Both the position numbers and the translations under genes were made by a program. Shown here piece by piece: positions 7,636 to 12,298 of a stretch of 64,000 nucleotides of DNA. The stretch covers positions 2,923 to 66,922 of the forward strand of contig CAZMNP010000074.1 of NCBI GenBank assembly GCA_964567675.1. The letters are read 5' to 3'. The DNA is from an uncultured Actinomycetes bacterium. Its GTDB lineage: Bacteria; Actinomycetota; UBA4738; HRBIN12. The notes under the pieces were generated by a model. It saw only the letters and a program-made list of their open reading frames with translations. It made no database searches and was not told the DNA's origin. Each line of letters starts with the position of its first letter. Positions within the stretch are counted from its first letter, which is position 1.

Positions 7636-8619
7636 ATGCCTTCCGCGGTGCCGCTCGTGCGCGTCGTCCGTTCCGGGTTCGAGGAGAGCGTGCACCTCGG
7701 TCACGTCGCCGTGTGCGACGCCGATGGCCGGCTCGTGGCGGCCGCCGGCGACCCGAACCGGCTCGTCTTCGCGCGTTCCTCGATGAAGCCGCTGCAGGCA
7801 GCGGTCTCCATCCGGCGGATCCCGGCGGCGCTCGCCGACGATCTCGTCGCCGTGGCGTGCGGTTCCCACAACGCGGAGCCCGACCATGTGCGCGTCGTCC
7901 GCCGCCTGCTGCGGGCCGGAGGCGCGACCGAGTCCATGTTGCGGTGCCCTGAAGCGTTCCCGTCCCGCACCGAGGACGCCATCCGGGCTGGGAAGGCACG
8001 GCGCGTCTTCTACAACTGCTCGGGCAAGCACGCCGCGATGCTCGCGGCCTGCATCGGTGAGGGCTGGCCCGTCGAGACCTATCTCGAGCCCCGCCACCCG
8101 CTCCAGCGCGAGATCCTTCGAGCGGTGCGCCGGGGGACGGGCGTCGACACCCCGGCCATCGGCATCGACGGGTGTGGTGTCCCGGTCCACGGCGTGCCGC
8201 TCTTCGCGATGGCGACCCTGTTCGCGCGCCTTGCCCGGCCGGATCGGTTGGGTGGCCTCGAGCCCACGGCCTCCCGGGCGGTCGCCGCCATGCGAGCACA
8301 CCCGTTCCTGGTCGCCGGGACCGGCCGGAGCGACACCCAGCTGATGGCGTCGGCTCCGCGCATCGTGTCGAAGGTGGGCGCCGAGGGGTTGCACTGCGCG
8401 GGCGTGCTCGATGAGGGGTTCGGCGTGGCGGTGAAGATTGCCGACGGCGGCGACCGGGCGGCCGGATCGGCCCTCGTCCGGGTGCTTTCGCAGATCGGCG
8501 CCATCGGCGAAGAGGAGCTCGGCCGGCTCTCGTCCGTCGCGCGCCCGCCGGTGCTCGGCGGAGGGCGGCCCGTAGGTGAGATGGTCGCCGAGTTCCGGCT
8601 TCGGCGCCCGCGAGCGTGA
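7636..8619 (+). CDS. asparaginase-II-family protein (PF06089-like)
   Basis: Family-typical segments are present (SSMKPLQA, YNCSGKHAAMLAAC, GIDGCGVP). Confidence 0.65.
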   Translation: MPSAVPLVRVVRSGFEESVHLGHVAVCDADGRLVAAAGDPNRLVFARSSMKPLQAAVSIRRIPAALADDLVAVACGSHNAEPDHVRVVRRLLRAGGATESMLRCPEAFPSRTEDAIRAGKARRVFYNCSGKHAAMLAACIGEGWPVETYLEPRHPLQREILRAVRRGTGVDTPAIGIDGCGVPVHGVPLFAMATLFARLARPDRLGGLEPTASRAVAAMRAHPFLVAGTGRSDTQLMASAPRIVSKVGAEGLHCAGVLDEGFGVAVKIADGGDRAAGSALVRVLSQIGAIGEEELGRLSSVARPPVLGGGRPVGEMVAEFRLRRPRA

Positions 8620-8693
8620 GGGCTCGTCCGCGCCGCGGACCGACTTGCCTCGCGGGCAGCGTTCGCAGGACCCGCAGGTACGATTTCGGTCGG

Positions 8694-9965
8694 ATGGGCG
8701 CACCGTCGACCTCGAACGGCTCACGACCACGCGTCGCCGTCGTGAGCCTGCACACCTCCCCCCTCGATCAACCCGGTTCGGGCGATTCCGGGGGCATGAA
8801 CGTGTTCATCCGCGCGGCCGCCGAGCGGGTGGCGGCGAACGGTGTCGACGTCGACGTGTTCACGCGGTGCCGCGGGCTGGACCTGCCCGAGGTCCAGTCG
8901 CTGGGCGGCCGGTCGAGGCTCATCCAGGTGAAGGCGGGACCGTGCGGCCCCGTCCCCAAGGACGAGCTCCCGCGCTACCTGCCGGAGTTCCTCGGAGGAC
9001 TGCTGCGGCGCCAACGACTCGAGGATGCGGGATACGACCTCGTTCACAGCCACTACTGGCTCTCGGGTTGGGTCGGCAGGAGCGCGAAGGAGATCTGGGG
9101 CGTGCCGCTCGTCGCCTCGTTCCACACTCTGGGCAAGGTCAAGAACTATTCGCTGGCGCTCGGCGAGACCCCGGAACCTCCCGCCCGGCTCTCGGGCGAG
9201 GAACGTGTCATCACCGATGCCGACCGGCTCGTCGCGGCCACTCCGGCGGAGGCCGCCCAACTGGTTGGCCTGTACCGCGCCGACCCCGACCGGATCCGCA
9301 TCATCCCGCCGGGTGTGGACCACGGTCTCTTCTCTCCTCGGTCACGAGATGAGGCCAGGGCGCGCCTGCACCTCGTCGATGTTCGGCTGCTTGTCTTCGT
9401 GGGGAGACTGCAGGCGCACAAGGGGCCCGACCTGGCCGTCCGCGCGCTGGCGGAGGCGATCGCGCGCGATCCCGTGGGCACCGCCGACGTCGTCCTCGCG
9501 ATCGTCGGAGGGCCGAGTGGGAGCGGTCACGGTGTGGAGGTCGCGCGCTTGATGGACCTCGCCGCCGCGCTCGGGATCGGCGAACGCGTGATGCTCTTCC
9601 CGCCGCAGCCCCAATCCAGGCTGGCGGACTTCTACGCCGCCGCCGAGGCGGTCCTGGTGCCGTCGCGCTCGGAGTCCTTCGGGCTGGTGGCTCTGGAAGC
9701 GCAAGCGTGCGGCACGCCCGTCGTCGCTGCTGCGGTCGGCGGCCTTCGATTCGTCATCGAGAACGGCGTGACGGGGTTCCTCGTCGAGGGTCACGACCCC
9801 GCCGATCACGCCGACCGGATCCTGGCCGTGCTCGCCGATCCCGCCGCCGCTGCCCGGATGGGCACCGCGGCGCTCGAGCGTTCCATGCGCTTCTCGTGGG
9901 ACGCCACCGCGAACGAGATGCTCTCCGTGTACCGCGAGCTGTTCGCGACCGCCGTCCCCGCGTGA
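8694..9965 (+). CDS. mshA: D-inositol-3-phosphate glycosyltransferase (mycothiol biosynthesis)
   Basis: A GT4 glycosyltransferase with the MshA-typical N-terminus (VAVVSLHTSPLDQPGSGDSGGMNVF) and a C-terminal EAQACGTPVVAA motif. I chose the ATG at 8694. Confidence 0.8.
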   Translation: MGAPSTSNGSRPRVAVVSLHTSPLDQPGSGDSGGMNVFIRAAAERVAANGVDVDVFTRCRGLDLPEVQSLGGRSRLIQVKAGPCGPVPKDELPRYLPEFLGGLLRRQRLEDAGYDLVHSHYWLSGWVGRSAKEIWGVPLVASFHTLGKVKNYSLALGETPEPPARLSGEERVITDADRLVAATPAEAAQLVGLYRADPDRIRIIPPGVDHGLFSPRSRDEARARLHLVDVRLLVFVGRLQAHKGPDLAVRALAEAIARDPVGTADVVLAIVGGPSGSGHGVEVARLMDLAAALGIGERVMLFPPQPQSRLADFYAAAEAVLVPSRSESFGLVALEAQACGTPVVAAAVGGLRFVIENGVTGFLVEGHDPADHADRILAVLADPAAAARMGTAALERSMRFSWDATANEMLSVYRELFATAVPA

Positions 9966-10405
9966 CGTTTCGAGTGGTGGAACGCTGCGGAGTCGACGAT
10001 CCCAAAACGCCGTTCACGATGAGGTTCTTCATCTGAGGCGCCTCGTGAACGCTGCGCTGCAACGCTCTCGAGCGTTCGATGCGCGTTGTGTTCATCTTCT
10101 TGTCACTCTGAATCCGGTGCCCTCTACCTGCGCATATGTTCGTGACCAGCGCGTTCGTGGAGTTGACCCGACGCCGCGCCGCCGTTACATTTCGCCTCGC
10201 TCCGAGCAGCCGGAGCGGCCGAGTCAGGGAACCGAGTGCGGGACCCCTGGGAAAGCCGTAAGGCCAACTGGGTGCAACTTTGCGGGACGGTTGGGAAAGC
10301 CAACTGGCTGTTCCGTAGGGGTAACTCGGGAGGCCCCAAAGCCCAACGAAAGGGTCTACGGCGAGGAAACCAAGACGGTTGCCAGAGGTTGCTCGGAGCA
10401 CCTGA

Positions 10406-10476
10406 GCCCGAGGGGCTGACGGTGGCTGGAAGCTTCGGCTTCCGGCGAGCCGGAGGTCCCTCGGGTTCTTTTCTTG
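10406..10476 (+). terminator. compound hairpin + U-tract, intrinsic-terminator-like
   Basis: An outer stem (CCCGAGG 10408-10414 with CCTCGGG 10459-10465) encloses a perfect GGAAGC-UUCG-GCUUCC tetraloop hairpin (10428-10443). The run TTCTTTTCTT (10466-10475) follows. The structure sits 40 nt upstream of the TetR start. Confidence 0.4.
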
Positions 10477-10514
10477 CCCTCTTTCTCGTTCCGTCCGGTA
10501 GCGTTCCCGCCGTG

Positions 10515-11168
10515 ATGGCGGCCGGACGCGAACCCCCCCGAGCGCAGAGCCAGACGCCGAGCCGTCGCGAGCAGATCGTCGATGTCGCGATGCGCCACTT
10601 CGCCGAGCACGGGTATCGCGGGACCCGGGTCGAGGACATCGCCGCCGAGGTCGGCGTCGCCAAGGGGACGGTCTTCCTGCACTTCGGCAACAAAGAAGGC
10701 CTGTTCCTCGCGGCGTTCGAACAGGCGGTCGGTCAGATCCCCGCGTGGCTCGACGCCCCCGAGGAGGTCATCGCCCGCGGGTTCTGGGTCGTTCTGGATT
10801 ACTGGCTGGAGCGGACCGAGGAGTTCCTGAAGCAGGAGTGGATCCCGAACCGGGTCGCGATGATGGGTCGCTACGACACCGACCTCGGGCTGCGCCGCCC
10901 GATCGATCGGTTCATGCGGAGGGAAGACCCGTACGGCACCCTCGAGTTCGTGGAGTTCGGGGTGCGGCGAGGCGAGATCCGAGACGACGTGGACGTCGAG
11001 ATGCTCGCTGCGATGCTCGACTGGGTCGCCGAGCGCTTCCAGGACGCGCTCGGCAGCGAGGAGCTCGACCCGGGCCTGGTCCACCGGAAGCCCTTCGTGC
11101 CCGAGCGCCGAGCCATCAGGATCCGGGAGTTCCTGGAGGTCCTCCGGACCGGGATCGCCGCGCGCTGA
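10515..11168 (+). CDS. TetR-family transcriptional regulator
   Basis: An N-terminal HTH is present (REQIVDVAMRHFAEHGYRGTRVEDIAAEVGVAKGTVFLHFGNKEGL). I chose the ATG at 10515. The upstream part of the listed ORF is junk. Confidence 0.8.
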   Translation: MAAGREPPRAQSQTPSRREQIVDVAMRHFAEHGYRGTRVEDIAAEVGVAKGTVFLHFGNKEGLFLAAFEQAVGQIPAWLDAPEEVIARGFWVVLDYWLERTEEFLKQEWIPNRVAMMGRYDTDLGLRRPIDRFMRREDPYGTLEFVEFGVRRGEIRDDVDVEMLAAMLDWVAERFQDALGSEELDPGLVHRKPFVPERRAIRIREFLEVLRTGIAAR

Positions 11169-11250
11169 CTCCCGAGCGAACCGGCCCCGCCACGGCCGGG
11201 GGGTCGCCCCGGACTCGACGCCTCCCCGCGTGGCCTGCCAACATGGCGTC

Positions 11251-12087
11251 ATGAACGAGCGGACGGTGGCGTTCCTGGGCGGCGGACGGATGGGCGAGGC
11301 CCTCGTGTCCGGATTGATCCGTTCGGGGGGTCGAGCGGCGGACGAGATCGTCGTGACGACCCGGCGCGAGGAACGCGCCCGCGAGCTCCAGGAGCGCTAC
11401 GGGATCTCGGCGACCACCTCGAACCCAGAGGCCGCCGGGCGCGCCCAGACCCTCGTGCTGATGGTCAAGCCGCAGGACATGGAGGGGCTCCTGGAGCAGA
11501 TCTCCGGGAGCGTGACCGCCGAGCATCTCGTGATCAGCTTCGCGGCGGGGATCCGGACCTCCTTCGTGGAGAAGCACGTCCCACCCGGCGTCCCGGTCGT
11601 CCGAGTCATGTCGAATGTGGCCGTCCTGGTCGACGAGGCGATGTCGGTGGTGTCGGCCGGCGCGAATGCCGAGGACAAGCACCTCGCCGTCGCCGAGGAG
11701 CTGCTCGGGTACGTCGGCAGGGTCCTCCGGTTGAAGGAAACGCACCTCGACGCCATCACCGCGACGAGCGGGAGCGGGCCGGCCTACTTCTTCCTCCTCG
11801 CCGAAGCCATGATCGAGGCGTGCATCCTGCTCGGGCTCGCGCGCGACGTCGCGACCGAGCTGATCATCCAGACGATGCTCGGCTCGGCGAAGATGCTGCG
11901 CGATACCGGGAAGCACCCGGTCGAGTTGCGCGAGATGGTCACCTCGCCCGGGGGGACGACCATCGCGGCGATCCGTCACCTGGAGGAGGCGGGCGTTCGG
12001 GCGGCCTTCCTGAACGCCATCGACGCGGCTCGTCACCGGAGCGCCGAGCTCGCGCAGGGTGGCGACGAAGACGAAGGGCTCAAGTAG
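11251..12087 (+). CDS. proC: pyrroline-5-carboxylate reductase
   Basis: The protein has a Rossmann N-terminus (VAFLGGGRMGEALVSGL) and the ProC C-terminal domain (SPGGTTIAAIRHLEEAGVRAA). Confidence 0.85.
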   Translation: MNERTVAFLGGGRMGEALVSGLIRSGGRAADEIVVTTRREERARELQERYGISATTSNPEAAGRAQTLVLMVKPQDMEGLLEQISGSVTAEHLVISFAAGIRTSFVEKHVPPGVPVVRVMSNVAVLVDEAMSVVSAGANAEDKHLAVAEELLGYVGRVLRLKETHLDAITATSGSGPAYFFLLAEAMIEACILLGLARDVATELIIQTMLGSAKMLRDTGKHPVELREMVTSPGGTTIAAIRHLEEAGVRAAFLNAIDAARHRSAELAQGGDEDEGLK

Positions 12088-12175
12088 CGAAGCGGTAGCC
12101 AAAGTAGGAAGGGCTCAAGTAGCGAAGCAGAAGCCAAGGCAAGTAGGCGAACGAGCAAGAGGAAAGAGGACGCTG

Positions 12176-12298
12176 ATGGGAAGAGGCGATCGAGCTCGGG
12201 TGCGATGGGCGCACGACCGCGAGAGGAAGAAGAAGGCGGCGGAGAAGCGCAAGGCCGCCGAGGCCGGCAGGGCCCGGAAGGCAGCCGGGAAGCGCTAG
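12176..12298 (+). CDS. small (40 aa) highly basic protein, uncharacterised
   Basis: The protein reads MGRGDRARVRWAHDRERKKKAAEKRKAAEAGRARKAAGKR. A GGAAAGAGGA RBS lies 5-14 nt upstream of the ATG. A purine-rich repeated motif precedes it. The same frame is open from the GTG at 12059, which overlaps the proC 3' end. Confidence 0.3.
   Translation: MGRGDRARVRWAHDRERKKKAAEKRKAAEAGRARKAAGKR

Follow-up and report, generated by a model that had tools for sequence, protein, structure and literature searches.

The window analysed here is a stretch of 64,000 nucleotides (nt) from an uncultured Actinomycetes bacterium (assembly GCA_964567675.1, contig CAZMNP010000074.1), and our subject is the spacer within it between mshA and a TetR-family regulator gene. 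The original prediction, made from the letters of this region, proposed a small RNA or a structured leader; we regard it as very probable that the spacer holds a structured RNA gene. As that prediction had noted, the spacer is GC-poor, with a GC content of 0.59-0.64 over 9900-10500 vs 0.70-0.75 in the flanking genes. The RNA element is single-copy within the window. Its parts are given below with the neighbouring features; "window-type" denotes the 30 homologues of the window's size class (5' domain of 203-207 nt), and lengths of helices are in base pairs (bp).

10198..10476, + strand: predicted mature RNA, ~279 nt, 5' end from promoter geometry and 3' end from the U-tract
10163..10191, + strand: RNA promoter, -35 TTGACC at 10163-10168, 17-nt spacer, -10 TACATT at 10186-10191
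10199..10399, + strand: 5' domain, an irregular rod of 65 bp in 13 helical segments (RNAalifold consensus of the 30 window-type homologues)
10199-10211/10387-10399, + strand: P1, 13-bp helix of the consensus rod
10215-10221/10376-10382, + strand: P2 of the consensus rod
10252-10261 opposite 10336-10341, + strand: largest internal loop, 10x6 nt, of invariant sequence in window-type RNA
10284-10294/10304-10314, + strand: apical stem of the consensus rod, with a 9-nt loop at 10295-10303
10404..10468, + strand: 3' compound hairpin, 27 bp (14-bp outer stem, GA/GA internal loop, 4-bp stem, 1x2 loop, 9-bp stem with a UUCG loop)
10466..10475, + strand: terminator U-tract, TTCTTTTCTT / UUCUUUUCUU
10124-10133 and 10143-10152, + strand: two direct repeats YKACCWGCRS, candidate transcription-factor sites, directly 5' of the -35
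10099..10109, + strand: upstream motif CTTGTCACTCT, a candidate regulatory site ~90 nt before the predicted start
8616..9965, + strand: mshA, encoding D-inositol-3-phosphate glycosyltransferase (MshA; TIGR03449, 478.7 bits, cut-off 462.5), a neighbour outside the RNA
10474..10504, + strand: probable, separate promoter of the TetR gene, TTGCCC at 10474-10479, 19-nt spacer, TAGCGT at 10499-10504, with the ATG at 10515
10515..11168, + strand: TetR-family regulator gene (PF00440, 64.8 bits), a neighbour outside the RNA

Promoter, terminator and fold

The promoter TTGACC-17-TACATT is the sole sigma-70-like site in 9800-10700, where shuffled sequences give an expectation of 0.0. Among the matches listed, it is kept in 89 of 91 distinct homologue upstream sequences, with a -35 of TTGACC (79), TTGACG (5) or TTGACT (5), a -10 of TACATT (51), TAGATT (14) or a close variant, and a spacer of 17 or 18 nt whose sequence varies. 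In the eight closest sequences the two hexamers are invariant while the spacer between them varies freely. The -10 stands 5-6 nt before CGCTCC in the homologues (again among the matches listed), a geometry that puts the start at ~10198, 1 nt ahead of P1. Conserved sequence extends from the promoter to just past the T-tract, both in the eight closest sequences and in the 30 window-type homologues, and the predicted length of ~279 nt falls within the range of 150-450 nt expected at the outset.

At the other end, the 3' hairpin folds at -55.7 kcal/mol (z = -6.2), its outer stem formed by the strands GAGCCCGAGGGGCU and GGUCCCUCGGGUUC. The nested stem around a UUCG hairpin and the U-tract after it had been described in the original prediction, and all elements lie within 1-3 nt of where it had put them. 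A simple terminator scanner missed this hairpin because its stem has internal loops; the arrangement is nonetheless that of an intrinsic terminator, a stable G+C-rich hairpin with a U-tract directly after it. No 10-nt stretch of the 64 kb other than TTCTTTTCTT has 8 or more T, counting A for the opposite strand, so the tract was correctly called unusual for this genome. The hairpin and U-tract are thus positioned to end a transcript as proposed, but that transcript would not start from mshA, since the RNA has its own promoter ~230 nt past the mshA stop codon.

Folding is strand-specific, at -160 kcal/mol and z = -7.2 on the + strand vs z = -1.2 for the reverse complement. The original prediction had suggested a check for covariation with homologous intergenic regions, and the outcome is strong: across the 30 window-type homologues 99.2% of cells in the rod pair, both partners have changed in 23 pairs (84 cells), and none of the five measures is matched by any of 500 shuffles. 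When the partners are slid by 1-3 columns, 32-50% of cells pair. Over 25 more diverse homologues, P1 and the 3' hairpin together pair in 97.7% of cells with 11 compensated pairs, of which the hairpin contributes 9 (of its 25 pairs) and P1 adds 2. This covariation of base pairs implies that selection acts on the RNA fold, and the many invariant G-U pairs, which would be C-A on the opposite strand, fix the orientation as +.

These results come from separate alignments. In a single MAFFT alignment of the 25 genome homologues the ends align well and the middle is unusable, because lengths differ; size classes were therefore analysed separately (A5, A6), and the alignment of P1 with the 3' hairpin (A4) was built from chimeric sequences with the middle cut out. 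The minimum free energy fold of the single window sequence was rejected as a model: each of the three helices peculiar to it is disrupted, with no compensating change, in 7-13 of the 30 homologues, and the columns that vary under them covary perfectly in the rod model (e.g. CG 17, GC 13), which is why the consensus rod is preferred.

Two copies of the repeat GGGAAAGCC...AACTGG, reported in the original prediction, are present where it had placed them, copy 1 (GGGAAAGCCGTAAGGCCAACTGG) at 10249-10271 and copy 2 (GGGAAAGCCAACTGG) at 10293-10307 (repeat finder entries D1 and D3). As a conserved pair they hold up in part: copy 1, which spans the largest internal loop, is nearly invariant in the window-type homologues, while copy 2 makes up the rod's apical loop and differs among relatives (GACAGCUAA, GAGAGCGAA, GAAGGCCAA).

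One 167-nt variant (L116:2598-2840, - strand), found on a single contig, lacks 39 nt, all of them from the 3' strand of the mid-rod, which would reflect either decay of this copy or an error of assembly. We considered the variant as a natural deletion test and set it aside as uninformative, being a one-sided deletion in one contig.

Relatives, size classes and minimal forms

A scan with MshA, taking one genome per species, gave 25 loci from a clade of uncultured Actinomycetota metagenome-assembled genomes, with MshA identity of 64-82%. The spacer element is present in all 24 loci that extend beyond mshA; the remaining one (L011) ends 163 nt after the MshA match. Scanning metagenomes with the 3'-hairpin pattern gave at least 120 further loci, and pattern searches combined with BLAST and nhmmer recovered more than 120 homologues in all. 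At least 98 metagenome loci carry one or both P1 strands, and mshA sits 5' of the RNA in nearly all homologous loci. The region is thus conserved in relatives, and the RNA family is widespread in uncultured soil and sediment Actinomycetota. Two JGI metagenome contigs (L165, L170) encode proteins 96-99% identical to those of the window and carry a nearly identical RNA, which points to the same population in public soil samples, for which metatranscriptomes may exist. Within 3 kb of mshA, the core hairpin is absent from 55 loci of other actinobacterial lineages (L025-L080 except L042), many of them cultured genera.

These counts bear on whether the spacer is functional at all. It could be a pseudogene in decay, a repeat element or simply spacer that includes the terminator of mshA, and its GC content, low for the genome, and the one-sided deletion in L116 would fit such an origin. 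The presence of the element at all those genome and metagenome loci speaks against it, as do its compensatory substitutions, its own conserved promoter, its single copy in the window and the lack of any Pfam match in the four open reading frames (ORFs) that cover the region. Covariation and promoter conservation contradict the decayed pseudogene that the original prediction had named as its alternative, and we consider a non-functional origin highly implausible.

Promoter and 3' hairpin stay constant from lineage to lineage, while the 5' domain ranges from 0 to ~460 nt. Among the matches listed, the distances from P1 to the 3' hairpin at the 75 loci with both P1 strands fall into classes of 167, 205-207, 268, 298-319, 343-368, 393-407 and 446-458 nt; the window RNA belongs to the 205-207 nt class. 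The long forms, here called crown-type, are not rods: P1 closes a shorter rod that bears a crown of tandem hairpins. Their rod helices P1-P4 and six GNRA hairpins show compensatory changes, with P2, P3 (CGCG/CGCG) and P4 (CCGGAC/GUCCGG) all varying in this way. The crown hairpins, of ~35-45 nt, consist of an outer stem, a small purine-rich internal loop, a GCC/GGC stem of 3-5 bp and a GNRA loop; among 482 such hairpins counted in the matches listed, the loop is GCAA in 217 and GCGA in 142. Their number rises with the length of the 5' domain, from one GNRA hairpin per RNA in the 205-nt class to 5-7 in the 300-nt and 7-11 in the 400-450-nt classes.

At the opposite extreme, the matches listed include minimal relatives made of little more than the promoter and the 3' hairpin: (i) Lineage D comprises nine loci (L098, L114, L131, L133, L136, L147, L167, L180, L190; MshA 40-47% identical), lying between the gene that adjoins mshA and proC. 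The promoter is TTGNNG-17/18-TACATT, TAGATT or TACAGT, 6-7 nt before AGAGCCCGAGG, and a leaderless proC starts 30-70 nt after the hairpin. (ii) L117 has the same arrangement 579 nt past an MshA-like gene (47% identity), with a different next gene. (iii) Lineage E comprises eight loci (L097, L101, L111, L128, L140, L152, L154, L157), where a 24-nt hairpin replaces the 5' domain and the flanking genes are an amidohydrolase gene on one side and an lnt-ppm1-like gene on the other. In these minimal forms the hairpin, of ~70 nt, follows almost directly after the promoter and shares the base AGAGCCCGAGG...CCUCGGGCUCU; none has an Rfam match. We infer that they are homologous to the main family, because they share the base of the hairpin, the geometry of the promoter and its -10 variants, and because lineage D is syntenic and lineage E has the CTTGTCACT motif upstream as well. 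The 3' hairpin, present in all of these forms that lack a long 5' domain, would then be the invariant core of the family as well as its terminator stem.

The comparison of size classes also bears on a base-pairing role. In window-type RNA a C-rich stretch, CCCCAAAGCCCAAC (10333-10346), is invariant and partly unpaired; the surrounding GGCCCCAAAGCCCAACGAAAGG (~10332-10353) is identical in 30 of 30 homologues and lies partly in internal loops. Such a segment might pair in trans with G-rich ribosome-binding regions, as proposed for other actinobacterial small RNAs (sRNAs), and the RNA's own regulated-looking promoter, with conserved upstream repeats, would suit an RNA of that kind. The segment, however, is absent from crown-type orthologues and from lineages D and E; the RNA is mostly helical, its conservation tracks pairing rather than sequence, and an sRNA that pairs through a seed is not typically 280-550 nt long with 65-150 bp of structure. 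We hold this explanation to be rather improbable.

The downstream gene, upstream motifs and neighbours

The proposal of a structured leader for the TetR gene is disfavoured. In almost all relatives a hexamer TACCGT, TAGCGT or TACTGT stands 8-11 nt before the TetR start codon, with a TTGTTC-like -35 where spacing permits, and a hexamer in the same placement (TAGCGT, TACCGT or TAGGGT) precedes proC in lineage D (e.g. L133, L098, L131, L147). This placement points to nearly leaderless TetR and proC transcripts whose -35 region overlaps the tail of the RNA terminator. TetR should thus be made from its own nearly leaderless transcript, to judge by these promoter-like hexamers, and a conserved promoter of its own makes a leader role unlikely. 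TetR lies 15 to ~200 nt from the RNA, depending on the locus, across a stretch without sequence conservation. The RNA is also kept where TetR is missing: in L003 (5205-6200) and L023 (3493-4422) a proline dehydrogenase gene (PF01619) replaces TetR directly 5' of proC and the RNA is unchanged, and seven metagenome loci among the matches listed carry the RNA with no TetR detected between it and proC. The promoter and upstream motifs are confirmed in the five of these seven that have enough upstream sequence, and in L003 and L023. Neither a riboswitch nor an attenuator would be expected to combine a 5' domain of 0 to ~460 nt with a separate downstream promoter and an unconserved spacer of 15-200 nt.

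An effect in cis on whichever gene follows (TetR in the window, proC or others at other loci), by read-through of a leader or attenuator or by interference from a terminator that abuts or overlaps the -35, nevertheless has arguments in its favour. In each of the four independent contexts a co-oriented gene follows the RNA closely, the predicted TetR -35 (10474-10479) shares positions with the U-tract, and the lineage D unit is nothing but a promoter, a hairpin and a U-rich tail 30-70 nt before proC. On the other side stand the conserved -10 elements of the downstream genes themselves and the variable, unconserved distance to TetR. A 5' domain of 0-460 nt is incompatible with one conserved ligand-binding aptamer, mere interference needs no strong covariation in a 5' rod, and no alternative anti-terminator pairing was seen in the folds. 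We consider action in cis improbable.

Upstream of the RNA promoter, the motif CTTGTCACTCT occurs once in the window and is found in all window-type relatives inspected, with or without TetR; lineage E has a similar CTTGTCACTGTTTC 5' of its promoter. The copies of the direct repeat read CTACCTGCGC and TGACCAGCGC, 19 nt apart, and both are kept with a spacing of 19-20 nt, whether the homologue is window-type or crown-type and also where TetR is missing. The proximal copy at crown-type loci is (C/G)TGAC-CTGCR-G(A/G)AAC. These conserved motifs suggest that expression of the RNA may be under the control of a transcription factor. Their persistence at loci without TetR indicates that the TetR of the window is probably not their binder. 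The repeats bear a likeness to GlnR or AmtR boxes, but the fit of the spacing is inexact; the proximal copy of crown-type relatives resembles a GlnR-type box with a spacing of 5 nt rather than 6 nt, and we assign no regulator.

Fourteen genes around the RNA were checked; 13 have a family match, and no HAD hydrolase is among them. An orphan response regulator of GlnR type (PF21695 GlnR_1st and PF00486; 874-1560, - strand) lies ~9 kb upstream of the RNA, whose neighbours include asparaginase II (7636-8619) and proC (11230-12087); together these genes hint at a nitrogen or proline theme at the locus. Two features lie at the end of proC. A 21-nt direct repeat, GAAGGGCTCAAGTAGCGAAGC, occurs twice 35 nt apart (12073-12128) within a strongly purine-rich stretch (AT skew up to 0.69), its first copy overlapping the proC stop codon. 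Directly after proC, a 32-codon ORF (12200-12298, + strand) would encode a Lys/Arg/Ala-rich peptide, VRWAHDRERKKKAAEKRKAAEAGRARKAAGKR; in mycobacteria a tiny basic ribosomal protein is encoded near proC.

Known RNAs and a possible mode of action

The Rfam 15 scans took in the whole window (gathering threshold), the region 9500-11000 (E<=10) and 14 related loci (E<=1 or E<=5). No family reaches its gathering score anywhere in the window; matches within 9500-11000 are at chance level (RT-12, miRNA precursors, and Ms1 at 10 bits), and the 14 related loci have no relevant match at their thresholds. The scan that the original prediction recommended thus gives no credible family for the region. ARAGORN finds no tRNA or tmRNA in the window, which together with the absence of gathering-score matches bears out a by-eye failure to see RNase P, tmRNA or SRP signatures. 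The homologues in the 30-sequence window-type alignment differ by single-nucleotide indels, which, like the lack of a Pfam match in the four covering ORFs, speaks against a protein-coding region. Our literature searches found no description of this RNA. In one related locus (L003:1477-1563, + strand) a sub-threshold twister-sister match (RF02681, 29.7 bits vs a gathering score of 34, E = 0.022) lies 5' of mshA.

Among the closest known RNAs is Ms1 (RF02566; MTS2823 in M. tuberculosis, scr3559 in S. coelicolor). It too is actinobacterial, and its ~300 nt are close to the ~280 here. Ms1 is described as a single-gene unit that starts at a sigma-A-like promoter, ends at an intrinsic terminator and folds into one long hairpin with internal loops and a short 3' hairpin (PMC4191392), and the window RNA likewise appears as a single-gene unit with such a promoter and a rho-independent terminator. 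Ms1 loci, however, have conserved synteny with an HAD-IB hydrolase/phosphoserine phosphatase gene and an oxidoreductase gene (PMC9130861), whereas the RNA here is flanked by mshA and TetR; membership by synteny was rejected, none of the 14 neighbours checked being a HAD hydrolase. RF02566 scores 10.2 bits over 10247-10472 (E = 7.4) against a gathering score of 162, by a mycobacterial model that distant members could escape, and by eye we see no similarity to the RACE-verified Ms1 of S. coelicolor. Ms1 has a long hairpin whose central bubble is its best conserved part; the window-type RNA is a long rod with an invariant 10x6 internal loop, and crown-type and minimal orthologues, branched or rod-less, have no bubble of that kind. 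No bubble is conserved family-wide. Binding of RNA polymerase core in vivo and accumulation in stationary phase are traits of Ms1.

As modelled, the RNA also recalls 6S RNA (RF00013), which serves as a template for product RNA, in its rod shape, in a closing helix that takes up both ends and in being a stand-alone RNA. It is ~100 nt longer, has the extra 3' compound hairpin and a 10x6 loop in place of a large central bubble, and has no 6S match at E<=10 in 9500-11000 or at the gathering threshold in the window. Of the "6S-like or novel sRNA" first proposed, novelty stands, with the promoter, the strand-specific fold, the covariation and the lack of an Rfam, tRNA, tmRNA or Pfam match behind it; "6S-like" holds only as a resemblance, there being no model match and the sister forms being branched or rod-less.

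These likenesses raise the possibility that the RNA is an RNA-polymerase-binding decoy of the 6S/Ms1 type, as a divergent orthologue or an analogue of Ms1, with a duplex and bubble in the nucleic-acid channel of the polymerase that would sequester core or holoenzyme. The actinobacterial host, the size and the overall plan of one long hairpin with a short 3' hairpin suit such a role, and Ms1 is the sole actinobacterial sRNA model among the weak Rfam matches. We keep this explanation low, as unlikely, in view of the failed matches to both models, the different synteny, and the branched or missing 5' domains: at the same locus some orthologues branch into 6-11 hairpins and others lack the 5' domain, and the largest loop in the window form is 10x6 nt.

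Two further groups offer partial parallels. Like the multivalent CsrB/RsmZ sponges, the RNAs of sister lineages string similar hairpin modules, 5 to 11 of them, between ends that stay fixed, but with GNRA loops (GCAA, GCGA) and purine-rich internal loops in place of the GGA loops to which CsrA/RsmA bind; the window form, a rod, contains a single hairpin sequence of this sort. CsrA is not known from this phylum. With raiA, ROOL, GOLLD and OLE, large noncoding RNAs of bacteria whose function is not known, the RNA shares unusual structural complexity, many GNRA loops and A-rich internal loops suited to tertiary contacts, as well as a discovery through comparative and metagenomic data only; it differs in architecture and genomic context and matches none of their Rfam models.

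Taking the evidence together, we put at about even chances the full proposal that the region encodes a stand-alone structured noncoding RNA of ~280 nt, of an uncatalogued family, that would act in trans as a stable protein-binding decoy or scaffold. The decoy or scaffold mechanism by itself, argued from analogy, is tentative and less likely than not. It draws on three properties: the ends lie in helices, there are few conserved single strands, and hairpin modules are multiplied in relatives. The sigma-70-type promoter, with candidate regulator sites 5' of it, is positioned to start transcription at ~10198. The 5' end would be sealed in the 13-bp P1 that closes the 65-bp rod, and the 27-bp UUCG hairpin with its U-tract is positioned to end the transcript at ~10476, so that both ends would be buried in helices and the RNA could accumulate as a stable, abundant molecule. 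Its conserved unpaired nucleotides are almost all in A/G-rich internal loops and tetraloops, which are typical sites of protein or tertiary contacts and not of mRNA seeds. The RNA may then act like 6S, Ms1 or CsrB, as a decoy or scaffold for protein, and would neither base-pair with targets nor serve as a leader. For the rod-shaped window form RNA polymerase would be one candidate partner, since rod shape and size recall Ms1.

Several points weigh against this proposal. The start and end of the RNA are predicted from sequence features, and no protein gene is recorded as co-varying with the RNA. The 3' hairpin is the sole element common to all lineages, so the 5' domain may be accessory or differ in role by lineage. 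In four of four contexts the RNA runs in the same direction as the next gene and ends 15-200 nt before it, which leaves room for an effect on that gene's promoter in cis, and the invariant, partly unpaired CCCCAAAGCCCAAC could be a base-pairing seed.

The size classes allow a more specific, speculative view, which we think possible though on balance doubtful. The RNA may be "expandable", the first example of its kind: a fixed chassis of promoter, 5'/3' clamp and 27-bp hairpin holds a helix-closed insert that grew to differing extents in different lineages, from 0 to ~460 nt, through hairpin modules of ~35-45 nt with GNRA and purine-rich internal loops, the rod of the window being a re-wired state of this insert. 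If this is true, the whole family would be controlled by a regulator acting on the conserved upstream direct repeats.

Few stable regulatory RNAs are well understood in actinobacteria (Ms1, 6C), and those come from cultured genera; Hfq, ProQ and CsrA are not known in actinobacteria. The element described here adds a strongly supported structured RNA from an uncultured lineage that is abundant in soil, and it is a ready candidate for a new Rfam family. Its sealed ends, scarce conserved single strand and the multiplied modules in its relatives suggest a protein partner rather than mRNA targets, and the natural size series of the 5' domain (0, 24, ~205, ~310, ~400 and ~450 nt) could be used to map the functional part. 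If RNA polymerase proved to be the partner, a third RNA, unrelated to 6S and Ms1, would follow their principle; should the modules be binding units, the family would consist of multivalent protein sponges or self-assembling scaffolds, a kind of RNA undescribed in Actinomycetota.

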